Shown: in pieces, positions 47,825 through 62,846 of the stretch
How the letters are laid out: each line of letters begins with the position of its first letter
Position numbering within the stretch: position 1 is the first letter of the stretch
Assembly (NCBI GenBank): GCA_043821485.1
Contig: JBDRCU010000057.1
Coordinates: 598-64,597, forward strand
Source of the DNA: Parcubacteria group bacterium
GTDB taxonomy: Bacteria > Patescibacteriota > Minisyncoccia > 2-02-FULL-40-12 > IGHO2-01-FULL-4-A
DNA length: 64,000 nt
Reading direction: 5' to 3'
Notes under the pieces: model-generated
What the model saw: only the letters and a program-made list of their open reading frames with translations
Databases searched by the model: none
What the model was told of the DNA's origin: nothing
Translations under genes and position numbers: made by a program

Positions 47825-48772
47825 TTGTGCGACACAGCTATATATTGCTATACTATATATGTGAATATCAAAGATCTCAAAAACCAATTCCTTGAACATC
47901 TAGAAATTGAGAAAAATAGATCCCCCAAAACAGTAGAAAATTACGATCACTATTTATCTAGATTCTTTATTTTTGCAAAAATAGACAAACCCTCACAGCT
48001 CACTGAAGAGTTGATCCGCAAATTCAGACTGCATCTCAATAGAATGACCGATAACAAAGACAAATCACTTAAGAAGGTAACTCAAAATTATCACATTATT
48101 GCGCTTAGGGCTTTTTTGAAATATCTATCGAAGCGGGATATACAAACTGTTCCGGCAGAGAAAGTAGAGCTTGGCAAGCAAGAAGAGCGACAAGTTGAAT
48201 TCCTTGAAGAAGGCGAGTTAAAGAAGTTTTTGGATTCTCCAAAGATGAATACGCTTGCAGGACTTCGTGATAAATCAATTCTTGAGACTCTTTTTTCAAC
48301 CGGGCTTCGCGTATCAGAGTTATGTTCACTAGATCGAGACTCAATTGATCTTGATAGGGGAGAGTTCTCTGTAAAAGGCAAAGGCAGTAAGATACGGTTG
48401 GTCTTTTTATCTGATGATGCCAAGTCTACGATTATTCAATATCTAGATAAACGAGTTGATGCTGATGAGGCGCTTTTCATACGAGTTCCTAAGGATGAAA
48501 AATTTGAAAAATACGAAAACCTTCGTCTCACTCCACGCAGTATACAGAGAGTCATTAAAAAGTATGCAATTGAATCAGGCATTGTAGGCAAGAAGGTCTC
48601 GCCTCATACATTACGCCATAGCTATGCAACAGACCTTCTTCGCAATGGTGCTGACATCCGTTCAGTGCAGGCTATGCTTGGACATTCATCTGTAACAACA
48701 ACTCAAATTTACACTCACGTGACAGACAAGCAGTTACGAGAGGTGCATAAGAAGTTCCACGATAAAAAGTAG
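47825..48772 (+). CDS. xerC: tyrosine recombinase XerC/XerD family
   Basis: C-terminal catalytic region HTLRHSYATDLLRNGADIRSVQAMLGHSSVTTTQIYTHV. The true start may be the GTG giving MNIKDLK. Confidence 0.85.
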   Translation: MCDTAIYCYTIYVNIKDLKNQFLEHLEIEKNRSPKTVENYDHYLSRFFIFAKIDKPSQLTEELIRKFRLHLNRMTDNKDKSLKKVTQNYHIIALRAFLKYLSKRDIQTVPAEKVELGKQEERQVEFLEEGELKKFLDSPKMNTLAGLRDKSILETLFSTGLRVSELCSLDRDSIDLDRGEFSVKGKGSKIRLVFLSDDAKSTIIQYLDKRVDADEALFIRVPKDEKFEKYENLRLTPRSIQRVIKKYAIESGIVGKKVSPHTLRHSYATDLLRNGADIRSVQAMLGHSSVTTTQIYTHVTDKQLREVHKKFHDKK

Positions 48773-48790
48773 GTGGTATAATGAATACAT

Positions 48791-49777
48791 ATGGAAGAAC
48801 AAATAAACAACCAGGAGCATAAGATAGGTATTTGGCCGATGATTGCAGGCGTAGTGATTTTGATTATTTTAATAATTGTGGTTGCGTGGCTCTACAACAG
48901 AGACGATGGTATCTCAACCCCTACGCCATCAGTTTCGCCCGAGATATCAAATATTGAACAAACGTCTTTTCTTTTTGGTAATCCATATGATGCTACCTAT
49001 GCAGATTGGGTTGAAGTTTTAAATGAAAATGATGTCCCATGCGAGGGTATGAACGATGCGTATAATCCGATATCAATACATGAATCGGACAACGGTATAC
49101 TGGTAACAATACTTTGTTATTCTGCGGCATATAACAGTGAATTTATAGCTGTTTATTCGGACGAGGGAGGAAATTTTACAGTTCTGTCATTTCCGATACC
49201 TCTAGATGATGGCATCTGGAGAAATGATGAGATAGTTTGGGGGCTTAGATTTAATGAGAATAATAATATATTAAGTACTATTATGATGGGACGCGGACTA
49301 GGAGACTGTGGAGAGTCAGGAGAGTATATTTTAGATGAGACTCAATCTAAAGTTGAGATACTTGAATATAGGAGAAAGCCTGAATGTGATGAGTACTATG
49401 GTTTTTGGCCTATTGTATATCCTGATACTGAAGGTTATAGATACTACAACATGGATAGAAATGGTTCTAATTCTTTTCTAATGCTTAGATCGGTTCACGA
49501 TTCTGATCAATATATTGTTGAATTAAAAGGTAGCGGAGGGTCTTCTGAAATGGCTCCAGCAGACTGCTACATAAGTGCTAGAGGAGAACCGTATGATGAT
49601 GATACTCTAAGAGCTAAATTTGATCTGGCAAATCCTCTTGACGAAGAGAGGATACTTGAGATGAATTATAGTTACAATGAGGTAGAAATCACTAGAGCAG
49701 ATACTTTCGGTTATTGTAGTTTAGGGACGAATTTTTTGGGCACCTATCGTTATATAGAACCTCCTATATATGATTAG
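48791..49777 (+). CDS. hypothetical membrane-anchored protein (328 aa)
   Basis: N-terminal TM; no motifs. Confidence 0.5.
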   Translation: MEEQINNQEHKIGIWPMIAGVVILIILIIVVAWLYNRDDGISTPTPSVSPEISNIEQTSFLFGNPYDATYADWVEVLNENDVPCEGMNDAYNPISIHESDNGILVTILCYSAAYNSEFIAVYSDEGGNFTVLSFPIPLDDGIWRNDEIVWGLRFNENNNILSTIMMGRGLGDCGESGEYILDETQSKVEILEYRRKPECDEYYGFWPIVYPDTEGYRYYNMDRNGSNSFLMLRSVHDSDQYIVELKGSGGSSEMAPADCYISARGEPYDDDTLRAKFDLANPLDEERILEMNYSYNEVEITRADTFGYCSLGTNFLGTYRYIEPPIYD

Positions 49778-49789
49778 TACTGATTACAC

Positions 49790-50449
49790 TTGACGTTAAA
49801 GAATATGGTTAAAAAAAATGGTTCAAGTTTGAGTGCATTATTTCTTTTGATTTTAGTTAATCTGATTCCTTTGTTTGGGGTATTATATTTGGATTGGGGT
49901 GTAGTCACGATTTTGGTTTTGTATTGGATGGAGAGTGTGGTAATAGGGTATTTCGGATACAAGAAGATTTTTAAAGTTACTGGAAATAGGCCCAAAAAAC
50001 ATTTTTTTGGACTCCTTTTTGGACTCCTCGGGCCTGCAAGTTATTTTCTTTTCAATTTTATCGTATTCATATTAGTAGACGCTCTTTTTTTGGTAATCCT
50101 TTTAGTTATCTTTTTACTTCAGACTCCAACAAGTTTTATAGAATATGATTTATCGTTTTCGTATTTGATAATCGGGTTTATAGGATTCTGGATAAGCCAT
50201 TGGTATTCTTATCGTTCTAACTTCTTAGGACGTGAAGAATATTTGAAATATACGCCAAAGAGCGTTACGCGCGCTCCATATAAAAGAATTTGGGTCATGC
50301 ATGCTTTCATAATAGTTGCAGGAGGAATCATGGCTTGGACGTGGTCGCTTGTCTCGCTTCTTCTAGTCTTGGTTGTATTAAAAATTGTTGCAGATATTAC
50401 ACTGCATCTAATGGAACACAACTTTTATCGTAATAATAAAGAGCAGTAG
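49790..50449 (+). CDS. hypothetical polytopic membrane protein
   Basis: 5-6 predicted TM helices. Confidence 0.5.
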   Translation: MTLKNMVKKNGSSLSALFLLILVNLIPLFGVLYLDWGVVTILVLYWMESVVIGYFGYKKIFKVTGNRPKKHFFGLLFGLLGPASYFLFNFIVFILVDALFLVILLVIFLLQTPTSFIEYDLSFSYLIIGFIGFWISHWYSYRSNFLGREEYLKYTPKSVTRAPYKRIWVMHAFIIVAGGIMAWTWSLVSLLLVLVVLKIVADITLHLMEHNFYRNNKEQ

Positions 50450-50478
50450 TATAATTAACCTCAATCTCTTAGCATAAT

Positions 50479-50510
50479 AAAACATGCAGTTATAGAACTG
50501 CATGTTTTAT
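50479..50510. terminator. bidirectional terminator AAAACATGCAGT-tataga-ACTGCATGTTTT
   Basis: 12-bp perfect stem between convergent genes. Confidence 0.65.
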
Positions 50511-50539
50511 TTAGATATTTTTTGTCTATAGAGGCTGGT

Positions 50540-50917
50540 CTATTTTAATATCTTCATTCCTCCAATGATAGGGAGTTCTTTCATCTCATTGTTTGCGCCA
50601 TGCATTATGCCTATGATCCACAATATAAATAGTATTAGATTGATTGCCATCCATGCCAGCCAGCCAAGGAATGGGATGAAAAGAAGTATCCATCCCGCTA
50701 TTGATGCTATGACGGCAGCTAGGAATAGTATGAGTTGTTGGTTGGCGTGAAATCGTTCTGTCTGTCCTTTGAGATTTAGGAAAAACAAAATTGGAATCAC
50801 ATACCCTAAAATAATCAGCGTATGTGAATTATTAGCTCCTTGTGGTTGCTGTGGCTGCTGCTGATATTGTTGGTTAGGTGGCGGTCCTTGTTGAGGCTGT
50901 TGTTGATTCATATCCAT
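50540..50917 (-). CDS. small membrane protein with Gln/Pro-rich N-terminus (DUF4870-like)
   Basis: QQPQQ-rich N-terminus then three TM helices. Confidence 0.5.
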   Translation of the reverse strand: MDMNQQQPQQGPPPNQQYQQQPQQPQGANNSHTLIILGYVIPILFFLNLKGQTERFHANQQLILFLAAVIASIAGWILLFIPFLGWLAWMAINLILFILWIIGIMHGANNEMKELPIIGGMKILK

Positions 50918-51106: not shown

Positions 51107-52684
51107 ATGGAAACACAAAATACACCAAATCCTTCAACGGTCCCAGTTATTGCAGGAGGTTCTTTTAGTGCAACTCAGATTGTTATAGCAGTTGTTGTTC
51201 TTCTGGCAGTTGGAGGCGTAGCATGGGCAGGATATTCGTATTTGGGAAGCAAGACTGAACAAAAATTACTTGTAGATGTAATTGAGAGTATGGAGGAAGT
51301 TGATTCTATGACTTTTGAAGCGTCATTTAACATTTTGATTACTGATAATAGTTACTCTTCAGGCCTTCTTGGTGGCCTTGCTAATACTTTTGGAGTATTT
51401 ATGGGGGATGAGATTTCTGATGATTTGGCCTTATCTCCTATCATTCCATCGAGTCGGGAGATCTCATTTACTGTTGATATCAATGGTGCTTCTGATACCA
51501 CGGATATTGATAATCAAAAGTTTGAAATGAATATGGATGTTGGGGTAGAAGGAGCTGATCTTGAATATATGACAGGAACAGATGAGCCACTCTCAATAAG
51601 TATGCAGATGAAAGGAATAGGAGATGTCGTATATGTGAAGCTTGATAGAATCGGAGGTATGTCACCTTTGGGTATTAGTATAAGTACAGACAAGTGGATT
51701 AAGATAGACCCTAAAGATCTTGCAGAACTTGAGGAACTCACAGGTTCTCTTGGAGCTCCGACATATGACGATATAGATGAAGAGCGTTTGAATGCTTTGT
51801 TGGAACCATATATGGATCAATTCGTCGATATTATGGGTAAGTATGACATCGTTAAGGTTTTGAGTTCTGGTTCTGGTCCTGAGATAGAAGGGGAGGAGAC
51901 AACTAGTTCCAAATTTACAGTGAACAAAGAAGAGACTGTGGATTTTTGGATAGAAGCAATGCCTGTTTTCACGGAAATGATGGATAAAATATATTTTGAA
52001 TTATTTGGAATTGAAAATATGATACTTGGAGATGCAGATCTTTCGGACTTTACAGATGAAGAAATAGCAGAGGGGAAGGCAGAGATATTGAAGATGTTAG
52101 AAAGTGTAAGTTTAGAGGGTTCAGCTACTATTGGAAATGATAGTGCAATTCCGTATGATATGGAATTTAATCTAGATATAGATGTAGAAAATTTGGGCTC
52201 TATGGAGACATCCTTTGATTTTCACATGAGAGATATTAATGAGCCTGTTATAGTAGAAGAACCGGAAGACTATATTACATTGATTGAGTTTATTGAGGGG
52301 ATGGATGGAATGGATTCTGGTTATGATTATAATAATTCTGCAGCAGATGATGTAAAGAGGGTGGCAGATGTGAACAATCTCCGTACTGCAATAGAGATGT
52401 ATTATGATGATTTCGGTGAATATCCAGATATGCTTGGAGATTTGGTTACAGAAGGATACTTGATGGAAGAACCTTATGATCCATTCTGGGATTGGTCTTA
52501 TGATTATGCTAGTTCTGGTAATAAGTATCAGATATCTGCAGACCTTGATAGTGGTTATCCTGATGAAGGGAATCTCGCTAATGATAGCGATATTGATGCA
52601 TCATCTTGGGGAGGAGTAGATGGTAATCTTGAGGAATGTTCTGGATTTGGCTGGGATTGTTTCTTTGATCTGGGATCGGAATAA
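51107..52684 (+). CDS. large N-terminally anchored protein with C-terminal pseudopilin/GspG-like domain
   Basis: N-terminal TM. The C-terminal LRTAIEMYYDDFGEYPDMLGDLV...YDPFWDWSYDY resembles the GspG/type IV pilin globular domain signature (ALxMYxLDNGxYP...DPWG..Y). Confidence 0.55.
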   Translation: METQNTPNPSTVPVIAGGSFSATQIVIAVVVLLAVGGVAWAGYSYLGSKTEQKLLVDVIESMEEVDSMTFEASFNILITDNSYSSGLLGGLANTFGVFMGDEISDDLALSPIIPSSREISFTVDINGASDTTDIDNQKFEMNMDVGVEGADLEYMTGTDEPLSISMQMKGIGDVVYVKLDRIGGMSPLGISISTDKWIKIDPKDLAELEELTGSLGAPTYDDIDEERLNALLEPYMDQFVDIMGKYDIVKVLSSGSGPEIEGEETTSSKFTVNKEETVDFWIEAMPVFTEMMDKIYFELFGIENMILGDADLSDFTDEEIAEGKAEILKMLESVSLEGSATIGNDSAIPYDMEFNLDIDVENLGSMETSFDFHMRDINEPVIVEEPEDYITLIEFIEGMDGMDSGYDYNNSAADDVKRVADVNNLRTAIEMYYDDFGEYPDMLGDLVTEGYLMEEPYDPFWDWSYDYASSGNKYQISADLDSGYPDEGNLANDSDIDASSWGGVDGNLEECSGFGWDCFFDLGSE

Positions 52685-52753: not shown

Positions 52754-53133
52754 GGGCTTGAAAGGCTTCGATGGAGGTTCATTTACAGGATTGAGCACGT
52801 CGAGTTTACCGATGTCTCGTAAATAATGTCGGTGCAAGATAAGTGCAAACACATCTTATCAAATGCCATCTATGGCAGGAATGTCACAAATGGCAGTAGC
52901 ATAACTTTTTAGTATAGCTACCGTCTTACCTCGGATTCTCGCTAGGGGGATAAGGCGTCATTAGCGAGAAACTTTGCCTGCTATTACTATGACGGCAGAA
53001 CATCGCAATTCCCATAGTACATTGCCTGAGCTTTTGTTCATTCCTTATCAGGCGGTGTAAATCGGAATGAACTAAACGTGTAGTATCATCTTGTATCAAC
53101 TTTCAGACGGGGGTTCGATTCCCCCCGAGTCCA
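52754..53133 (+). ncRNA. ssrA: tmRNA (ssrA)
   Basis: 5' GGGCUUGAAAGGCUUCGAUGGAGG resembles the tmRNA 5' end. The acceptor stem GGGCUUG/CGAGUCC contains a G3:U pair. T-arm GGGGGUUCGAUUCCCCC, discriminator A. The candidate tag reading frame 52845..52904 encodes ANTSYQMPSMAGMSQMAVA then a UAA stop. Confidence 0.8.
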
Positions 53134-53137
53134 CAAA
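53124..53137. repeat. left copy of 14-nt direct repeat CCCGAGTCCACAAA (tmRNA 3' end, attL-like)
   Basis: Identical copy at 53919..53932. Confidence 0.7.
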
Positions 53138-53139
53138 CG

Positions 53140-53172
53140 AAATAACCCTTATTTTACGGGGGTTATTTTTGT
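53140..53172 (+). terminator. terminator hairpin after tmRNA (AAATAACCC-ttattttac-GGGGGTTATTTTT)
   Basis: Near-identical (28/32) to the hairpin after tRNA-fMet at 1286..1317. Confidence 0.6.
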
Positions 53173-53286: not shown

Positions 53287-53670
53287 TTACTGGGCGGTAG
53301 CAGCCGCCCGGCTTTCGACCCACTCTCTACTCACCACATGGGCGAGCAAGTAGTTCACGGCCTCCTGTAACGCGGAGGCCCTCATGAACTCGTAGGTGGG
53401 GTCCTTTTGGACCCCGAGCTTCATCGCCGAGAGGCCGTAGCCCAGGGCATTGACGCCCTTTAACTGGCCTCTGCCGTTGCTGTCCAAGCACTTGTCAATG
53501 TGCTTGGTGGCATTGTCGACGAGTTTCAGGAACTCATCGACATCGACGTCGTACTTGGCCAGGACATCCATTGCCTTGGCCAGATCATCTATTGGGTTAC
53601 CATGGACCATGAGGACCATGGCAGAGAGGGAGCTGAGCTCCCGTTTTGTGGTGTGATGCACGTAGGCCAT
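53287..53670 (-). CDS. hypothetical protein (127 aa), GC-rich, inside tmRNA-associated insert
   Basis: ORF with GC content far above the host; no motifs. Confidence 0.45.
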   Translation of the reverse strand: MAYVHHTTKRELSSLSAMVLMVHGNPIDDLAKAMDVLAKYDVDVDEFLKLVDNATKHIDKCLDSNGRGQLKGVNALGYGLSAMKLGVQKDPTYEFMRASALQEAVNYLLAHVVSREWVESRAAATAQ

Positions 53671-53918
53671 TTTTGGCCTCCTTTTTTAAAGTACCCCACC
53701 CCTAACGAGGTTTCGGGGTTAATTTTTGCTTTTCGCTATAGACACAATGCCTATGCGAGTACAGCCCCCTTCCCGGGTCTTCTGTCAATTTAATGTATAT
53801 TATAACATATAATATATTCTTTTGTCAACCTCATATATAGTAGATTCAAACTTCAATTACACCACCCAATTCCCAAAAACCCCTCATCTCCCTCACCAAA
53901 AGGTTCATATTAAAACAT

Positions 53919-53932
53919 CCCGAGTCCACAAA
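53919..53932. repeat. right copy of 14-nt direct repeat CCCGAGTCCACAAA (attR-like), followed by a second terminator-like hairpin 53941..53967
   Basis: Exact match to the tmRNA 3' end. Followed by TAAAACACCC-ttttg-GGTGTTTTATA. Confidence 0.7.
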
Positions 53933-54004
53933 GAAAAAATATAAAACACCCTTTTGGGTGTTTTATATTGGAATAAATTGGATGCTTAATGATATAATTA
54001 ATCT

Positions 54005-57000
54005 ATGCTTGATCCTCAACTAATAACTTACATATCTCAACAACGCCAAGCGGGTATTCCAGATGATCAAATACGATCCAGTCTTTTGTCTTCAGGATGG
54101 CAGGCTACAGACATCGATACGGCTCTTGGTGGGGGACAAGCTCAACCTGCTCAAACAACGCAACCTGTTCAGCCCACTCAACAACCTCAACCAGTGCAAC
54201 AACCCCAACCAACCTCTTCAAAGAAAACTCTTATCCTAATCATAGTCATGACTGTACTCATCATAGCTCTCATAGCTTCGTACTTCCTTTTCTTCAGAGA
54301 TTCATCTTCTGATCCAACCCCAACTCCTCAATCCCCAACCAAGCGAACAACAATCAATGCATATGGTACTACCATAACTCCGGGAGTAGATTACTATGAA
54401 GGATTGATAGTATTCAGTCTCAGAAATGATAAAAGATTGACTTATCAAAATGGAACTGATCTTCCTGAAGGGTTAACGCCCATCGATCAATTAGATGATA
54501 CTAACCCTAATTCTCTAATATCTCTATTCAATCAATATAACTCTACAGACTTAGAAAGAAACTATAGAGGAATAGATGAACAAAGCACTTCATATACATT
54601 ACATATACCAGAAGACACAGATATCCTTGAGATAATGACTGATTTGCAGAGGACATCAGAAGTTAGATTTGCTGAACCTAGGTATATACCATATCTAGAT
54701 GATGCGCCATCAGATCCATTTTTTCGTTCAAAAGGGTCATTAGGGGGCGATTATGATGATCAATGGAATTTTAAACTCATAAATATGGAACAGGCATGGG
54801 AGATATCGAAGGGAGAAGGAGTTACAGTAGCTGTGATAGACTCGGGCGTGGATCATGAACACCCTGATTTAGAGGGGAACGTTCAAGAGGGCTATTATTA
54901 TAGCTACGGATGGAAGGATACCGATATAAAACCTCGAGGTATTCATAAGGGATGGGTAGGCGATTGTACTCAGACTCATGGTACAATGGTTTCTTCTATT
55001 CTGGCAGCCAAGAATGATGGCAAGGGTATGGTGGGTGTAGCACCAAAAGCAAAGATTATACCAATAGTGGGTATAAGATCAGTTTCTTGCAATGGCATAG
55101 AGGGTGAATCTTTAGGTTATGAAATGTCCATAAGGAAAGCAGCCGATTTGAATGTGGATGTAATAAATATGAGTTTGGGTTATCGAGTTCCTCTTGTATC
55201 TGCTGATCTTACTGAGGCAGTACTCTATGCGGTAAATAAGGGAACGGTGTATGTTACTTCTGCAGGTAATGATCATAGAGACACGACTTTTGGCTCCCCT
55301 GAAAATATTCATGAAGCAATAGTTGTCGCAGCAGTAGATGAGAATGATAAAAAAACAGATTATTCTAACTATGGACCAACAATTGATGTGACTGCTCCAG
55401 GCGGAACTTGGAAGAGACCCATATTAGGAGCATGGTCTACAATGTTCCCAGGTGATGCGACATATGATAAAGAGGAATCTGTAGTCGATGAGAAAGGGCT
55501 ATATGCAGGGACAACGGGAACCTCCTTTTCTGCCCCTACTGTAGCAGGTGTAGCAGCTCTTGTTATAGCTCAGGATAAAACCTTAACACCAAGTGAAGTG
55601 GAATGTGCATTGAAGCTCGGAGCAAAAGATGTAGAAGAGCCAGGATTCGATCCAAAGTCAGGATTTGGGAGAGTAGATGCATATAAGTCACTACTTTTAT
55701 CCAAGGATGACTTAAAGCCATTTGATGAAGAAGGTAATCCTACAGAAGCAGAAAAATGTTTTGAGCAGGTAGCGATAACATATCCTGGGATAAATGAAGG
55801 TATAAATGCAACAAGATTAGAGCCACTAGGAATTAGAGGTTTAGTATCTATTACAGATATTGACTATTATGTCCTGGAATATCTTAAAGAAGGAGCTAAT
55901 CCAAAGACAGGATGGATAGAGATATTTAGGGATACTAAAGAAGTAAAAGATGGGATTTTAGGACAATGGGACATAAAGGATTTAGAGGAAGGGAATTACC
56001 AATTGCGTCTGCATGCATTTAATAAGTCCGGTAAGCGATACGAAAATGAAGTATCTTTCTATATATATAAAACCGTTGCATGTTTTATTGACGGAATTAC
56101 CAGCATTGATGGGACTACAAGGAATCTAGTAGAGCCTACGAGATGTAAAATTATGACGGAATTAAGCTCTTCTAGTCCACTTTGGCTAACATTTAAAGAT
56201 AAGAGTTGGCAGATAGTTTATCCCATACCAGGTGATGGTCGAATTGTAACCTATGATGATAAGACTCACTATCTATATGTAGATAAGAAAAGTTGTGATG
56301 ATAATAATCCTGAACACGAATTTCGTGTAAATTGTAGTTGTATTGATAAGTATCCAGCTGAAAGTATATGCGTAGAAGAGGAGTATACATTTACTGATAA
56401 ATCAGGTGTAAGGAAATCAAATACGAGTGCCTACGGTATATTATCTCATTGGCAAGAGAATGATCCAGGTAAGGTAACATGTGAGGCAGTAGATGATTTA
56501 GCAGATGATACTGATCTTAGTAGTCCATTTAATTTTGAGCACGACAATGAGTTCTTATGTGAAGAGAAGGAGGATACGCCGGAACCAGTTGTATCAGATG
56601 AGAGTATACTTTGTACTTTTTCATCTGAAGAAAGAAAAGAAGGAGATTTCATTTCACATGCACAATCAAGAGGTATGGTTAGTAGTGGGGGGAGTATCGA
56701 AGGTATATCCCTTAGTTATGAAGAGAGAACTGTGTTTAAAAATGGTAAGGTATATCTTGCTTCGGATTTTTTTGGATCATTTGATTCAGGAGGTGGAGTC
56801 GATGATTGTAAATGGGTTTATGCTGATTATCCTTCAGATAAATTTGGTCTATTATCTAAAGAAGAGATAGATATCGAGATGATGCATTCAGATAGAAGAC
56901 TTGATGATGAGTTGGGACTACCGCCAATATTACCGAAAGATCTATGCACAAGGGATGTCTCTTCTGAACTTTTTGAAACGCCAGGTAAAGAATGCAGTAT

Positions 57001-57160
57001 AGAAGAGTATGAAAACGCTGTAGTAAAAAAAGCCGAAGACAGATTTCCACCAGGAGAGCTGGATACGGTAAAGAGCGAACTTAGGAAAGTGGGGATAGAT
57101 TTTAGAGAGTCCGTAATAGAGGACGCTCCAAGTATATGGGAGTTTGTTCAAAAGCCATGA
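54005..57160 (+). CDS. membrane-anchored subtilisin-like (S8) serine protease with N-terminal cytoplasmic module and ~500-aa Cys-rich C-terminal extension
   Basis: N-terminal 45-aa module (ITYISQQRQAGIPDDQIRSSLLSSGWQATDIDTALGG), a Q/P linker, and a TM helix. S8 triad motifs VAVIDSGVDHEHPDL (Asp), HGTMVSSILAA (His) and GTSFSAPTVAGVAAL (Ser). Confidence 0.85.
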   Translation: MLDPQLITYISQQRQAGIPDDQIRSSLLSSGWQATDIDTALGGGQAQPAQTTQPVQPTQQPQPVQQPQPTSSKKTLILIIVMTVLIIALIASYFLFFRDSSSDPTPTPQSPTKRTTINAYGTTITPGVDYYEGLIVFSLRNDKRLTYQNGTDLPEGLTPIDQLDDTNPNSLISLFNQYNSTDLERNYRGIDEQSTSYTLHIPEDTDILEIMTDLQRTSEVRFAEPRYIPYLDDAPSDPFFRSKGSLGGDYDDQWNFKLINMEQAWEISKGEGVTVAVIDSGVDHEHPDLEGNVQEGYYYSYGWKDTDIKPRGIHKGWVGDCTQTHGTMVSSILAAKNDGKGMVGVAPKAKIIPIVGIRSVSCNGIEGESLGYEMSIRKAADLNVDVINMSLGYRVPLVSADLTEAVLYAVNKGTVYVTSAGNDHRDTTFGSPENIHEAIVVAAVDENDKKTDYSNYGPTIDVTAPGGTWKRPILGAWSTMFPGDATYDKEESVVDEKGLYAGTTGTSFSAPTVAGVAALVIAQDKTLTPSEVECALKLGAKDVEEPGFDPKSGFGRVDAYKSLLLSKDDLKPFDEEGNPTEAEKCFEQVAITYPGINEGINATRLEPLGIRGLVSITDIDYYVLEYLKEGANPKTGWIEIFRDTKEVKDGILGQWDIKDLEEGNYQLRLHAFNKSGKRYENEVSFYIYKTVACFIDGITSIDGTTRNLVEPTRCKIMTELSSSSPLWLTFKDKSWQIVYPIPGDGRIVTYDDKTHYLYVDKKSCDDNNPEHEFRVNCSCIDKYPAESICVEEEYTFTDKSGVRKSNTSAYGILSHWQENDPGKVTCEAVDDLADDTDLSSPFNFEHDNEFLCEEKEDTPEPVVSDESILCTFSSEERKEGDFISHAQSRGMVSSGGSIEGISLSYEERTVFKNGKVYLASDFFGSFDSGGGVDDCKWVYADYPSDKFGLLSKEEIDIEMMHSDRRLDDELGLPPILPKDLCTRDVSSELFETPGKECSIEEYENAVVKKAEDRFPPGELDTVKSELRKVGIDFRESVIEDAPSIWEFVQKP

Positions 57161-57202
57161 TGAATGCAGGTTTTGATGATATATTAATCTTAATATCCCT
57201 CT

Positions 57203-60200
57203 ATGTCTAGTCCTCAACTCACAACCTACATCTCTCAACAACGCCAAGCTGGTATTTCAGATGATCAAATACGATCTAGTCTTCTATCTTCAGGATGGCA
57301 GGCTGGGGATGTAGATATAGCTCTTGGTGGGGGACGATCTCGACCCGTTCAGCCAGTTCAATCCCAGCAGCCAACAGCGACCCCGAAAAGCAATAAGAGA
57401 TGGTTGACCATACTAATAGCAGTAATAGTGGTAATTTTAGTTGTAGCATCCCTATTCTGGTATCTAAAGAATAAAGATACAGGCGTTCCTCAAGAGTTAA
57501 CTCAATTGAATGAGCAGCTCCTAGATTATCAATCTAGAGAAGAATTAATACAAGCTATAGATATACTGAAGAATCATAAAAATTCAGATAATGAATATTT
57601 TCAAGAAGAGAAGAAGTTTTTAGAATCTAAATTGGTAATTTTGGATTTTCAAAATGCGATGAAGGATATGAAAGATAATGACTTTAAATGTAGTGATAGA
57701 GAAGGGTTCTTTCAAACAATAAGGAATGCACAAGAGATAACGTCACAGACAAACCCCGAGCTATTAGAAGAGATAGAAGTGTCTAGTAGTTTAGACCTAT
57801 TTCTTCCAGATCAAGATAGCTGGCAATTGATAGAGAGATTTTATGAAGACGTGTATAGACATACATGTGTAAACCCTGTTTCAACAGATTTGCCGGTGTC
57901 TACAACAGGAGAAATAACGATGCTTGTAGAAAGAATTATGTCTGAAAAAGGTGCCACTGAAGAAGCAATGGTATCGCAGTGGGACGATGTAGTGGGCCCT
58001 AGTAATGATATACGTACAGGAGCGGGTATCCCTATAGCATTAGACAGGGATTACTGGTTCTATTTCATTGATTATGATCCAGGAGCAATGTTTGCACATG
58101 ATGTACTTTATCTATTCATTGATAAAGATTCTGGTGATTACATAGCGTTAGAAGAACAATGGTATCCAGTAATAGACGGTAATGCATTTTTGGGTGTAAT
58201 TGAAGAGGATCAATTAACAGTAGAAGAACAAATTTCAGTAATGGAACCAAGTCGAGATTCAGGGAACGTACTGGGAGTATTAAATCCTTGGTCTGTACCA
58301 GAGGCATCTGCCCAAGAGCTTGCAGAAGGAAATGAAAAATACGCAATCTTGATTGCAGGTTCTGGAGATCTGACTGCTTTTCAAAATGAAGCAGCGATCT
58401 TTTATCATTTAGTAAAAGATCGAGGATATAAGGATGAGAATATAGAATATTTGTCATGGTCTAGAGAAGAGTTTGAAAGAATAAGGCCAGACTTATTGCC
58501 CCATACCCCGTGGCTTTTTGAGGGAACAGATGCACTGACTAGTAAAGCCAATTTCCGTAGTGCAGTAAATAAAATAGCAAATAAGATTCAATGTGGAGAC
58601 GATTTTTTTCTGTCTTATGGAGGGCATGGAAGTAATACTGGCATCGATGGACATTGGATTAATAAGAAAACAGGAGAAAATATTTGGACTGTATTGCCAG
58701 AGGAGCCACCAAGTCGGGACTTATGGGAGCTGATGAATACATCTGAAGTATGGACATTTGATATCGGTAAAGACTCTGATGGTACTATGATCGCTGCCAG
58801 TTCAAACGAGATAATCCATGCTTTAAATAAAATGGACAGTTGTAATAAAATGCTTGTATTAGATTCGTGTTTTTCTGGTAAGGGAATGGCAGAGATAGTA
58901 GCTGATAGTCCTGGAACTACGGTGCTGGCAGCAACTAAAGCCGACGAAGTAGGTAGATTTTCCTGGCCTCTTGTCATAGGAAGTAATTATGTAAAAGATT
59001 ACAAAAATAGGGGGGATGAAAGCATTGGGATAATAGGGCCAGGCATGTTTATACTTAAACTTTATGAAGCAATCGATAAGAATGGTGAGAATCTTTTTGA
59101 GGATTTAAATAATGCATTCAGTGTAGTCCAAACTCAAGGGATTAGTCGTCATACTCCTCAAAGAGCTGAATCCACTCTTGCTTGTACCTGCGAAGGCTGC
59201 TATATAGGCTCTCTTAATCTCGATAAGCCAACAACTTGTACCAAAGAAGCAAACGATGGCATAGGAATAGACCTATCTTTTAAAGATGGTTCTTGGAGAA
59301 TGAAATATCAAGATAATGGTCCAATGAGTGAGATCGTATACAAAGATAACAATATCTATGAATACCAAGGAGATTGTATAAATGACTCAAACGAACAACA
59401 AGGAATAGACTGTGGATGTTATGAAAGACTACCAGGACAAAGCATATGTCCAGAATCAGAATATACATATACAAAAAATGGTGCATCAAAAATCAATGCT
59501 AGTGCATATGGAATAATAGAGCATGGCTTAGAAGATAATGAAATATCATGTAAACAAGATACTGATATATCAGATCAGGAATTTGTGATTAGTGAGATAG
59601 ATATATGTCACAGTCAAGAGAGTCCAAATCCAACTCCAGTATTAGAAGTAACCCCAGCTCCCGCTGGCTGTAGTAGATTCCTTACTGGAGAACAGGCAAG
59701 TTCTATAATGGGGCGTCCTATGGTTCCATTGGAAGTTTATCTGTCAGATACAGATAGAGACCGCACCGGCTATAACTATGCAAAGCAATATGCAGGTTTC
59801 AGGATAGATTTTTGTGAATACGGAGAAGAGGACATAAGGGATAGGGCCAAGGAAGGAGCATTGGTAATTGAGCTAGAGATTAAAACAATGGTTGATAGTT
59901 TGTTAACTGTATCTAATCCTGATGTAGACAAAAGAACTGGTGCAGAGCTTCTATTACATACATTCAAATTGGAAGGATACACATTCGAGGAAATAATGGC
60001 ATTTGGAGGGGAATCACCCATACCAAAAGTATCGGGCGTTTCAGAGGGGTATTATAGTAATGAGAGAGGAGAAGGAGCTATGATTGTTAATTATGATCAA
60101 TATTTTATTAAAGTTTATCAGGATGAAGCAAGATGGCCTGAAGCTAAAAGAATTATGGATAAATCCCAGACTAGCGCAATAATGAGGCGGATAGAAGCTA

Positions 60201-60208
60201 ATCTATAG
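57203..60208 (+). CDS. membrane-anchored caspase-fold (legumain C13 / clostripain C11-like) cysteine peptidase, paralogous architecture to the upstream subtilase
   Basis: Same N-terminal module (LTTYISQQRQAGISDDQIRSSLLSSGWQAGDVDIALGG) then a TM helix. His-Cys dyad context YAILIAGSGD ... LSYGGHGS ... LVLDSCFSG. The C-terminal Cys-rich segment shares the C.C...P..SIC.E.EYTxT....N.SAYGI motif with the upstream gene. Confidence 0.65.
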   Translation: MSSPQLTTYISQQRQAGISDDQIRSSLLSSGWQAGDVDIALGGGRSRPVQPVQSQQPTATPKSNKRWLTILIAVIVVILVVASLFWYLKNKDTGVPQELTQLNEQLLDYQSREELIQAIDILKNHKNSDNEYFQEEKKFLESKLVILDFQNAMKDMKDNDFKCSDREGFFQTIRNAQEITSQTNPELLEEIEVSSSLDLFLPDQDSWQLIERFYEDVYRHTCVNPVSTDLPVSTTGEITMLVERIMSEKGATEEAMVSQWDDVVGPSNDIRTGAGIPIALDRDYWFYFIDYDPGAMFAHDVLYLFIDKDSGDYIALEEQWYPVIDGNAFLGVIEEDQLTVEEQISVMEPSRDSGNVLGVLNPWSVPEASAQELAEGNEKYAILIAGSGDLTAFQNEAAIFYHLVKDRGYKDENIEYLSWSREEFERIRPDLLPHTPWLFEGTDALTSKANFRSAVNKIANKIQCGDDFFLSYGGHGSNTGIDGHWINKKTGENIWTVLPEEPPSRDLWELMNTSEVWTFDIGKDSDGTMIAASSNEIIHALNKMDSCNKMLVLDSCFSGKGMAEIVADSPGTTVLAATKADEVGRFSWPLVIGSNYVKDYKNRGDESIGIIGPGMFILKLYEAIDKNGENLFEDLNNAFSVVQTQGISRHTPQRAESTLACTCEGCYIGSLNLDKPTTCTKEANDGIGIDLSFKDGSWRMKYQDNGPMSEIVYKDNNIYEYQGDCINDSNEQQGIDCGCYERLPGQSICPESEYTYTKNGASKINASAYGIIEHGLEDNEISCKQDTDISDQEFVISEIDICHSQESPNPTPVLEVTPAPAGCSRFLTGEQASSIMGRPMVPLEVYLSDTDRDRTGYNYAKQYAGFRIDFCEYGEEDIRDRAKEGALVIELEIKTMVDSLLTVSNPDVDKRTGAELLLHTFKLEGYTFEEIMAFGGESPIPKVSGVSEGYYSNERGEGAMIVNYDQYFIKVYQDEARWPEAKRIMDKSQTSAIMRRIEANL

Positions 60209-60226
60209 ATAGGATTTATGTAAACA

Positions 60227-60258
60227 AAATACCGCCGGGCGAAGCCCGGCGGTATTTT
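60227..60258. terminator. bidirectional terminator AAATACCGCCGGGC-gaag-CCCGGCGGTATTTT
   Basis: 14-bp stem between convergent genes. Confidence 0.7.
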
Positions 60259-60294: not shown

Positions 60295-60561
60295 TTATGC
60301 TGCTGGTCGATCTTCTCTTGGTCGTGCTTCATTGACCTTAAGTGGTCTGCCACTGAATTCTTGTTCATCGAACATTTCAATAGCCTTTGTAGCATCTTCA
60401 TCGGTTACCATTGTAACAAAACCGAATCCTTTGCTACGTCCACTAAACTTGTCAGTGATGACAACAGCTTCTTCAACTTCACCAGCTGCGGAGAACTGCT
60501 CCTTAAGCTGTTCAGAAGTCGTTTCGTAGGCAAGGTTGCCTACATATAATTTCTTAGCCAA
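60295..60561 (-). CDS. RRM-type RNA-binding protein
   Basis: RNP2 KLYVGNL and RNP1 KGFGFVTM motifs. Confidence 0.85.
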   Translation of the reverse strand: MAKKLYVGNLAYETTSEQLKEQFSAAGEVEEAVVITDKFSGRSKGFGFVTMVTDEDATKAIEMFDEQEFSGRPLKVNEARPREDRPAA

Positions 60562-60712: not shown

Positions 60713-61156
60713 TTAGTATTGTTTGACTACTCTATCTTTCCTTCGTTTAAACTCCTTTTCTTTGATCTTTTCGCGTTTATCATATTTCTTTTTGCCTCGG
60801 GCAATGCCAATTTCCAGCTTTACCAGACCACGTGTTCCATAGAGTTTAGTGGGTACAAGAGTTATGCCTTTTTCTTCGGTTTTGCCAATGAGGTGCTTGA
60901 GTTGAGTCTTGGTAACGAGGAGTTTGCGACTGCGTTGCTGATCATAATCCTTGGGAGTATTACCCGGTTGATAAGGGGAGACAGTGGCTCCAATGAGCCA
61001 GAGCTCTCCACTCATTATTTTTACGTAAGCTCCTTTGATAGATGCTTTCCCAGCTTTGATTGCTTTGGTCTCAAATCCTTTCAAAACCAAACCAGCCTCA
61101 ATGGTATCGAGGATTTCGTAATCATATGAAGCTTTTCGATTGGTAGCGTAGGACAT
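60713..61156 (-). CDS. smpB: SsrA-binding protein SmpB
   Basis: SmpB signature (YDYEILDTIEAGLVLKGFE...LLVTK) and basic C-terminal tail. Confidence 0.9.
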   Translation of the reverse strand: MSYATNRKASYDYEILDTIEAGLVLKGFETKAIKAGKASIKGAYVKIMSGELWLIGATVSPYQPGNTPKDYDQQRSRKLLVTKTQLKHLIGKTEEKGITLVPTKLYGTRGLVKLEIGIARGKKKYDKREKIKEKEFKRRKDRVVKQY

Positions 61157-61775: not shown

Positions 61776-62846
61776 CTATTTCCTCTCTGTCAGCTTAACC
61801 TTTGTGCGTAATTCTTTGTCTTTGCGAAGTATTTTGAGTTCTACTATATCTCCAACCTTGTGGCGATCAACCATATCTGCAAGTTCATTTTTTTCTGTTA
61901 ACTTGCGTCCATCTATTGTGAGGATTACATCATTTTCTTTTATATCAGCCTTGTCAGCAGGGGAGTCCTTAACTACTGCAGTCGAACCCGGCATATGGTC
62001 TTTGATGACAAGCGCCCCATAGTCCACATCCAGTTCGTATTGTTCTTTTAGTTCTTTATTAAGCGTCACATATCGAAGTCCGATATATGGGCGTATTATG
62101 CGTCCATGTTCGTTGAGGTCCGCTATGTCAGCTTTTGCCCAATTTATAGGAATGGCGAAGCCAATATTTTGCGCTCCGTAGATCACAGCCGTGTTAATGG
62201 CAATAACTTTGCCTTGAAGATTTGCTAAAGGTCCTCCTGAATTACCTTGATTGATTGCTACGTCAGTTTGCATAACATGACGCAAATTCTCAACTTGTCC
62301 TTTGCCAAGAGATGCAGAAACTTTTCGGCTCAAGCCTGAAATTATTCCTTTTGAAACTGTATTATTAAAAACTCCCAAAGCATTACCAATCGCAATAGCA
62401 GTCTGGCCAAGTTCCACGCCATCTGAATCTCCAAGTTCTGCCACAGGCAGTCCTTTGACATCTATTTTTAAAATCGCAACGTCATTGATTGGATCGCGCG
62501 TAATTACGCGTCCTGTATATTCATGCTCGTCATTTGTTATAACTGTATATTGTGCATCAGCATCGTAGACCACATGTTTATTCGTAACAATTAATCCATC
62601 AGAGCTTACTATAAAACCAGATCCGCCACCCACTTTGACGCGATGTTTAAGATTGTCCGGTATATTATTATTCGGATCATCTGTAAGATCTTGTTCAGGC
62701 AATGGTATGCCAAATTGCCCCAAAGGATTAAGAGTAGGGGAGGCAAGCTTTTTCTTGTCCTGAATAAATTTGCTGATGACAATGCTTACAACGCAGGGAA
62801 TGATTTTTCTAACTGTTTCAATGGTTTGTTTTTCTTCATCGAACAT
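61776..62846 (-). CDS. htrA: HtrA/DegP family serine protease with PDZ domain
   Basis: N-terminal TM. Catalytic motifs (TNKHVV, D..., GNSGGPL) and a C-terminal PDZ. Confidence 0.9.
   Translation of the reverse strand: MFDEEKQTIETVRKIIPCVVSIVISKFIQDKKKLASPTLNPLGQFGIPLPEQDLTDDPNNNIPDNLKHRVKVGGGSGFIVSSDGLIVTNKHVVYDADAQYTVITNDEHEYTGRVITRDPINDVAILKIDVKGLPVAELGDSDGVELGQTAIAIGNALGVFNNTVSKGIISGLSRKVSASLGKGQVENLRHVMQTDVAINQGNSGGPLANLQGKVIAINTAVIYGAQNIGFAIPINWAKADIADLNEHGRIIRPYIGLRYVTLNKELKEQYELDVDYGALVIKDHMPGSTAVVKDSPADKADIKENDVILTIDGRKLTEKNELADMVDRHKVGDIVELKILRKDKELRTKVKLTERK

Follow-up and report, generated by a model that had tools for sequence, protein, structure and literature searches.

Two predicted membrane-anchored peptidases with a common N-terminal module and unlike catalytic cores, encoded in tandem by a Parcubacteria group bacterium

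On an 86-kb contig of a Parcubacteria group bacterium metagenome-assembled genome (MAG), two long genes follow each other on the plus strand. Gene A (54005..57160) encodes 1051 amino acids and is annotated by NCBI as 'S8 family serine peptidase'; gene B (57203..60208) encodes 1001 amino acids and is listed as hypothetical protein ABH833_04210. All coordinates refer to the 64-kb stretch of this contig that was analysed, here called the window, and all features of A and B lie on the plus strand. The proteins begin with nearly the same N-terminal module (N-module) and carry a related cysteine-rich module, and between the two modules they have different catalytic cores. How did such a pair arise, and what do its common parts stand for?

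With a probability of roughly 0.7, we favour two extracellular peptidases with type-II anchors, encoded as an operon, that were assembled by domain shuffling and whose leaders were recently homogenised. A and B would each span the membrane once in type-II orientation, keeping the N-terminus in the cell and exposing a large ectodomain, with an S8 subtilase in A and a legumain/caspase-type clan-CD core in B. They would be mosaic paralogues with an old, lineage-private Cys-rich module in common, and their N-modules would have stayed near-identical because the neighbouring genes recently recombined or underwent gene conversion. Acting at the cell surface, the enzymes would most likely either scavenge peptides from external or host proteins or cleave proteins on the cell's own surface.

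Common modules around different peptidase cores

BLASTP comparison of A with B returned two segments, residues 1-62 (71% identity, E 3e-23) and A 690-863 with B 658-814 (32% identity, E 3e-18), and beyond those no other significant similarity. The DNA of the N-module is 85.2% identical (54013..54140 and 57211..57338); this likeness begins ~20 nucleotides (nt) upstream of the ATG and dies away within a Q/P-rich linker. In A, the N-module (residues 1-44, 54005..54136) has predicted helices at residues 4-15, 20-30 and 34-42 and is followed by the Q/P-rich low-complexity linker (residues 45-73, 54137..54223) with KK at its end and by a single transmembrane (TM) helix, a putative signal-anchor (residues 74-97, 54224..54295). 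B repeats this order with a three-helix N-module (residues 1-44, 57203..57334), a linker that ends in KSNKR (residues 45-66) and a single TM helix (residues 67-89, 57401..57469). In both proteins K/R residues stand N-terminally of the helix. An earlier, sequence-only reading had described the two open reading frames (ORFs), the near-identical N-terminal module, the low-complexity linker and the single TM helix, all of which are borne out by these data. Every cysteine lies past the TM helix (16/16 in A, 17/17 in B), which fits an extracytoplasmic, disulfide-bonded ectodomain.

The catalytic core of A is readily classified. Pfam Peptidase_S8 (PF00082) matched it with 169.7 bits (cut-off 21.8, E 1e-49) over profile positions 1-288 of 288, and alignments were obtained with AK.1 protease (E 6e-33) and thermitase (E 1e-30). 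The domain (residues 270-555, 54812..55669) keeps the Asp-His-Ser order and the oxyanion Asn, with D279 in VIDSGVD, H325 in THGT, N422 in AGND and S507 in GTSFSAP. Judged by these motifs and the full-length profile match, protein A carries an intact S8 subtilase and belongs to family S8. A possible prodomain precedes the core (residues ~116-255, 54350..54769; weak Fervidolysin N-prodomain match, E 0.039), and a beta-rich region with a faint FN3-like match (residues 585-690) leads to the Cys-rich module. Assignment of A to the mycosins was rejected, since TIGR03921 scored 191.8 bits, below its cut-off of 278.75, and no ESX/type VII secretion system genes occur among the neighbours.

The core of B (residues 379-620, 58337..59062) is C13/C14-like, and the earlier statement that the two cores differ is upheld. 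Pfam Peptidase_C13 (PF01650) reached 30.4 bits against a gathering score of 22.8, in a match that according to a fragment scan covers only profile positions 1-39 (the first strand, KYAILIAGSGD) and ~134-193 (the Cys region). The NCBIfam caspase model matched residues 531-582 (E 3e-5), and the PADLOC caspase model matched residues 434-583 (E 3e-4), a stretch that spans both the His and the Cys motif. The Cys region is hence recognised by C13 and both caspase models, the His region by the PADLOC model and, weakly, by Peptidase_C14 (positions 47-101, E 0.05-0.12). In the translation, FFLSYGGHGS (H475) and MLVLDSCFSG (C556) each end a hydrophobic strand, and the His motif comes first; the DSC.SG form resembles that of metacaspases. 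Matches from three libraries, together with the canonical motif order, argue for a clan-CD core, and B is a probable candidate for a clan-CD cysteine peptidase of the legumain/caspase type (C13/C14-like).

Several observations weigh against reading the pair as two anchored peptidases, and most of them concern B. Its C13 match amounts to 30 bits over parts of the profile, no clan-CD structure in the PDB was matched by its sequence, and the insert of ~80 residues between the His and Cys motifs is unusually long, the usual distance in clan CD being shorter. AlphaFold2 prediction of B 365-800 from a two-sequence alignment gave a mean predicted local distance difference test (pLDDT) score of 33.8, and the topology of both proteins was derived from crude hydropathy and a positive-inside count. 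B might therefore be catalytically dead or no peptidase at all, with a merely local likeness to clan CD, and the pair would then consist of a protease and an accessory protein. The weak and partial profile matches, the missing PDB match, the long insert and the unusable structure prediction speak for this explanation. It has to account, however, for matches from three independent libraries that fall on the elements of a clan-CD core in the order expected and for the presence of both His-Gly and Ser-Cys after hydrophobic strands, and we consider it improbable.

The Cys-rich module (C-module) comprises ~135 residues (A ~690-830, 56072..56494; B ~658-790, 59174..59572) with 32% identity, seven conserved Cys and the motif C.C...P..SIC.E.EYT.T....N.SAYGI..H in both proteins. 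The motif and the seven Cys confirm part of the earlier description, in which both proteins end in a Cys-rich segment; the module is not terminal, however, but is followed in each protein by ~200 residues of mutually unrelated tail (A 831-1051, 56495..57157; B 791-1001, 59573..60205). Each tail is specific to its protein and without detectable relatives, and B in addition contains an orphan juxtamembrane ectodomain region (residues 90-370, 57470..58312). Neither this region nor the tails gave anything significant in Pfam or PDB sequences.

Relatives of the C-module were absent at E<=10 from the protein collection (word-indexed search) and from the metagenome contigs (degenerate-pattern scan), and a profile search of PDB sequences gave nothing significant; the word-indexed protein search with full-length B matched B itself and A only. 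By these searches, the C-module appears to be confined to the two genes or to their lineage. A conserved C-terminal binding module, as proposed earlier, finds no relative outside the pair and no support for binding. The module is probably disulfide-bonded, and it may serve to bind substrates or a surface, to form heterodimers or to regulate. In their domain make-up A and B are mosaic proteins, in which a common N-module and a common Cys-rich module are combined with unrelated peptidase cores.

The N-module family

No match to the N-module of A and B was found in Pfam or NCBIfam, in accordance with the earlier remark that it was not recognised among described sorting signals, and literature searches turned up neither the module nor the A/B architecture. 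A two-sequence profile of A and B, run exhaustively with HMMER against 1.84 billion cluster representatives, retrieved 857 relatives at E<=1e-3, 14 of them at E<=1e-10. A word-indexed search with the 44-residue module alone finds nothing, not even A and B, which is a limitation of the index. Carriers, positions and topologies were counted among the best 150 of the 857 relatives. The sequence-only reading had named similarity confined to low-complexity sequence as a possible objection. This does not apply: the module has a hydrophobic pattern common to hundreds of proteins, with near-invariant Y9, G17, I23, L27, G31 and W32. While the enzymes A and B are new variants on known kinds of peptidase, the N-module is an uncatalogued family.

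In 133/149 proteins the module begins within residues 1-12, and a TM helix lies downstream in 116 of the best 150, after a linker with a median length of 24 residues. K/R residues are biased to the module side of this helix in 77 proteins and to the opposite side in 19; the former bias is characteristic of an N-in topology. The module is predicted to be a folded three-helix domain that is cytoplasmic in most family members, and the low-complexity linker would join it to the first TM helix, which would target and anchor the protein. In A and B the TM helix (residues 67-97), not the N-module, can act as the signal-anchor. A cleavable Sec/Tat or lipoprotein signal was rejected for the N-module of both proteins, as the first hydrophobic stretch begins only at residue 74 (A) or 67 (B), downstream of the folded module and its linker, and no n-h-c region of such a signal occurs in the first ~30-40 residues.

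Carriers range from 49 to 2842 residues. Their partner domains include RDD, TM2, DUF5671, DUF4870/MamF_MmsF, DUF2127, PLDc_N and PD40, and further Big_13, CARDB, DKNYY, FGE-sulfatase, Beta_helix and Poly_export. Among the best 150 relatives, S8 and C13 domains occur on A and B only, the remaining partners being various ectodomains and small membrane domains of the multi-pass type; the module is not, as had been suggested, a leader specific to surface enzymes or proteases. Named sources are Parcubacteria, Doudnabacteria, Thermoanaerobaculia (an Acidobacteriota MAG), Woesearchaeota and Nanoarchaeia. The family stands at the head of many unrelated membrane proteins in bacteria of the candidate phyla radiation (CPR), in DPANN archaea and in some other phyla. 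The module is a general domain with unrelated partners, which had been named as a second possible objection and holds for the N-module, not for the C-module.

Two placements run counter to the expected topology. One relative (P0045) has a lipobox signal peptide before the module, and in another (P0143) two copies follow a DKNYY ectodomain; the N-module is therefore not a strictly cytoplasmic device. In several proteins the module is repeated in tandem; a Woesearchaeota protein of 1358 residues (P0003) has eight matched stretches. Arrays of up to 8-11 matched stretches were seen in P0003, P0098 and P0005 (Nanoarchaeia, 517 residues); the array of P0003 lies C-terminal to the sole predicted TM helix, and the copies of P0005 lie ahead of the TM helices.

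The surroundings of some carrier genes were also noted. On one contig (L006, 10001-10987), a membrane protein of 328 residues with an N-module is encoded within the ribosomal protein cluster, between rpL5 and rpS8, and on another (L009, 10001-11272) a carrier of 423 residues with three module copies lies between the same genes on the opposite strand. The usual gene at this position is rpS14. A DUF4870/MamF_MmsF gene adjoins a DUF6498 gene both in the window (49790-50917) and on contig L012 (206-2300); the DUF4870 protein has an N-module on L012 and on contig L003 (3319-3957), and a Q/P-rich N-terminus without the module in the window.

The predicted fold of the N-module is confident and three-helical, and in the model it corresponds to the three-helix repeat fold of RecX. 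The modules of A and B had no match to Pfam RecX_HTH1/2; 5/96 module copies gave sub-threshold matches to RecX_HTH1 or RecX_HTH2 (E 0.005-0.03), and sub-threshold matches to DUF494, RecX and UBA are scattered among the relatives. Summed RecX_HTH1 or DUF494 scores exceed the curated cut-offs in the tandem-copy relatives P0003, P0098 and P0005. An hhalign comparison of the N-module with repeat 2 of E. coli RecX gave P 0.005 and a probability of 7%. Homology to RecX by sequence was thus not demonstrated, single copies never reaching the curated thresholds; the module is RecX-repeat-like in fold, with suggestive sequence likeness and homology unproven. It is acidic (net charge -2 to -3), which argues against binding of nucleic acids or lipid headgroups.

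Origin and surroundings of the pair

The two common modules differ in their divergence. By the Nei-Gojobori method, the proportions of synonymous (pS) and nonsynonymous (pN) differences between A and B are 0.33 and 0.11 in the first 44 codons, and 0.69 (saturated) and 0.47 in the C-module. The lower pS of the leaders indicates that their common ancestor is much more recent than that of the remaining sequence. Most simply, the two gene sequences can be explained by recent gene conversion or recombination between tandem neighbours, which homogenised the leaders on top of an older domain shuffling. The leader value comes from ~32 synonymous sites only, and part of the low divergence could result from selection on the 5' mRNA. 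In the whole library the next best single-copy leader scored 63.5 bits, compared with 108 bits for A and B, so that no other library protein, those of the same MAG included, has a leader as close as A and B have. The window contains no third copy of the N-module (also by a 96-sequence family profile) or of the C-module.

Neighbouring genes with similar leaders were found once more. An unrelated metagenome contig (L003) has three N-module genes within 7 kb, of which an adjacent pair (742 and 179 residues) is alike in the leader only, the first ~76 nt being ~89% identical in DNA. A single module gene was seen at each of seven other independent loci (11-22 kb). The sharing of leaders by neighbours is thus not unique to A and B, but it is not the rule.

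These data bear on the cassette proposed in the sequence-only reading, in which the N-module acts as a leader dedicated to sorting or anchoring, the Cys-rich module is a common binding module, and varied proteolytic heads are set between them. Two unlike peptidase folds do stand between the same two modules, the likeness of the leaders extends to the DNA, and the L003 neighbours have a common leader in front of unrelated ectodomains. The mosaics are therefore real. However, the families listed for the best 150 module-bearing proteins include no peptidase besides A and B, and the N-module is a folded domain with a linker before the TM helix rather than an n-h-c signal. The C-module was found in no other protein and is limited to A and B, which leaves these two as the sole examples of 'interchangeable heads', and more than one module gene occurs at only 1/8 other independent loci. 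We regard a dedicated cassette as quite unlikely.

Another explanation assigns the N-module the part of a cytoplasmic address domain through which many unrelated proteins of the membrane and surface would be linked to one intracellular partner or pathway in CPR, DPANN and a few other organisms; leaders within a genome would be kept alike by co-evolution with the partner or by gene conversion. The position at the very N-terminus, the six near-invariant residues and the wide distribution on unrelated partners are in line with such a role, as is the observation that leaders are more alike within than between genomes (window and L003). Recent duplication or gene conversion explains the latter equally well, though, and the most conserved residues may be the hydrophobic core of the fold. 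Moreover, some copies are apparently extracytoplasmic or in tandem, and the partner is a hypothetical one. This explanation is unlikely in our judgement, and we retain the homogenised operon of two anchored peptidases.

The operon itself is suggested by the spacing of the genes. The gap between A and B (57161..57202) measures 42 nt and has no hairpin, and its final ~20 nt are similar to the sequence that precedes A. A perfect 15-bp stem-loop with flanking A/T runs (60226..60258) lies between B and a convergent RRM gene and is likely a bidirectional terminator that ends the A-B unit. The short hairpin-free gap and the stem-loop after B are consistent with one transcription unit, and the co-oriented genes A and B are, to judge from this arrangement, probably co-transcribed. 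No purine-rich Shine-Dalgarno sequence lies upstream of either gene (53990-54007 and 57188-57205). Gene A has an extended -10-like element, TGATATAAT, that ends 7 nt before the ATG, and TAATAT is found at a similar distance from gene B. The mRNAs of A and B may be leaderless or nearly so, which could add to the nucleotide-level conservation of their 5' ends.

A transfer-messenger RNA (tmRNA) gene (52754..53136, plus strand) is located directly upstream of the pair, and its 3' end (53124-53142) is repeated at 53919-53937. This raises the possibility that A and B were brought in by a mobile element with the tmRNA gene as its integration site. The repeat is present in exactly two copies in the window, though, and the pair lies outside them: they enclose only a GC-rich insert of ~0.8 kb that ends before gene A, and no third copy follows. 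The GC content of the pair (38-39%) equals that of the genome (window 40%), the genes directly after the pair encode an RRM protein, SmpB and HtrA, and no integrase adjoins. An island comprising A and B was rejected on account of the small insert bracketed by the repeat, and we assign mobile cargo a very slight chance only.

The insert deserves a description of its own. The repeats consist of the terminal 14-19 nt of the tmRNA gene, with the second copy 795 nt downstream, and the sequence between them reaches 60% GC (genome 40% GC). It holds a single ORF of 127 residues on the minus strand (53287..53670) with a perfect match to a sigma-70-type promoter (TTGACA, 18 nt, TATAAT; 53828..53799). 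The ORF was without match in Pfam, PADLOC and the phage or plasmid collections. The insert appears to be what is left of an element that integrated at the 3' end of the tmRNA gene.

Further upstream, the plus strand encodes a XerC/D-type recombinase (47825..48772), a DUF1176 protein (48791..49777) and a DUF6498 protein (49790..50449), followed by a DUF4870 protein on the minus strand (50540..50917) and a pilin-like protein of 525 residues on the plus strand (51107..52684). The latter has an N-terminal TM helix and a weak T2SSG match (E 0.006) at residues 412-500, near the C-terminus, which is an unusual place for a pilin-like segment. Downstream of the pair, the minus strand encodes the RRM protein (60295..60561), SmpB (60713..61156) and an HtrA-type protease (61776..62846). 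An anti-phage defence system was also considered for the locus and rejected: PADLOC returned only generic 'subtilase' and 'caspase' matches and a weak IetS match (26.9 bits), and the neighbours are housekeeping genes. Far from the pair, at 1000-1285 on the plus strand, a group I intron (Rfam RF00028, 75.8 bits, 1025-1234) splits an apparent initiator-type tRNA-Met in the anticodon loop, with CGCGGGGTGGAGCAGTCCGGTAGCTCGTTGGGCTCATAA as 5' half and ...CCCAAAGGTCGTTGGTTCAAATCCAACCCCCGCA as 3' half; ARAGORN made no call for this tRNA.

Significance and comparison with known systems

The genomes of Parcubacteria and other CPR members are small and their owners are thought to depend on other cells, which makes surface enzymes prime candidates for nutrient gain and host contact. 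With two large, differently catalysed predicted surface peptidases and a private Cys-rich domain, A and B offer a tractable pair for such questions. If the N-module were catalogued, a piece of each of hundreds to thousands of membrane proteins now listed as 'hypothetical' would gain an annotation, in lineages that are poorly understood, and the family raises the question of what job a conserved cytoplasmic head performs on many unrelated carriers. If the module were indeed an address domain, the protease pair would be one instance of a general system that organises surface proteins.

Among known enzymes, A resembles the thermitase-like S8A subtilases in its complete S8 domain, the Asp-His-Ser order and the oxyanion Asn. 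It differs from membrane-anchored S8A subtilases in its additional N-module, its Cys-rich module and an orphan tail of 220 residues. The mycosins, the most familiar S8 peptidases bound to bacterial membranes, are likewise tethered by one helix; the mycosin anchor is C-terminal, whereas that of A is N-terminal. With the members of clan CD (legumain/GPI8 in C13; caspases, metacaspases and orthocaspases in C14), B has the first strand, the H-G and C motifs and their order in common. Unlike these, B is N-terminally membrane-anchored, comprises 1001 residues with three orphan regions, and shows a partial profile match and a His-Cys gap of ~80 residues.

The N-module has looser counterparts. RecX is a soluble RecA regulator of three repeats, whereas the N-module occurs in A and B as a single acidic copy on membrane proteins and has no RecA link; UBA-like and Ltp-type three-helix domains offer a looser comparison still. 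In Pfam architectures, small cytoplasmic head domains at the N-terminus, such as zinc-ribbon and GYF_2, are found on RDD, TM2 and DUF4870-type proteins. These membrane proteins are built like the N-module carriers, from a soluble head, a low-complexity linker and one or more TM modules, and the partners are the same (RDD, TM2, DUF4870/MamF_MmsF, DUF5671, DUF2127 and PLDc_N). The N-module differs from the zinc-ribbon and GYF_2 heads in fold and sequence family, and it also heads very large enzymatic ectodomains.

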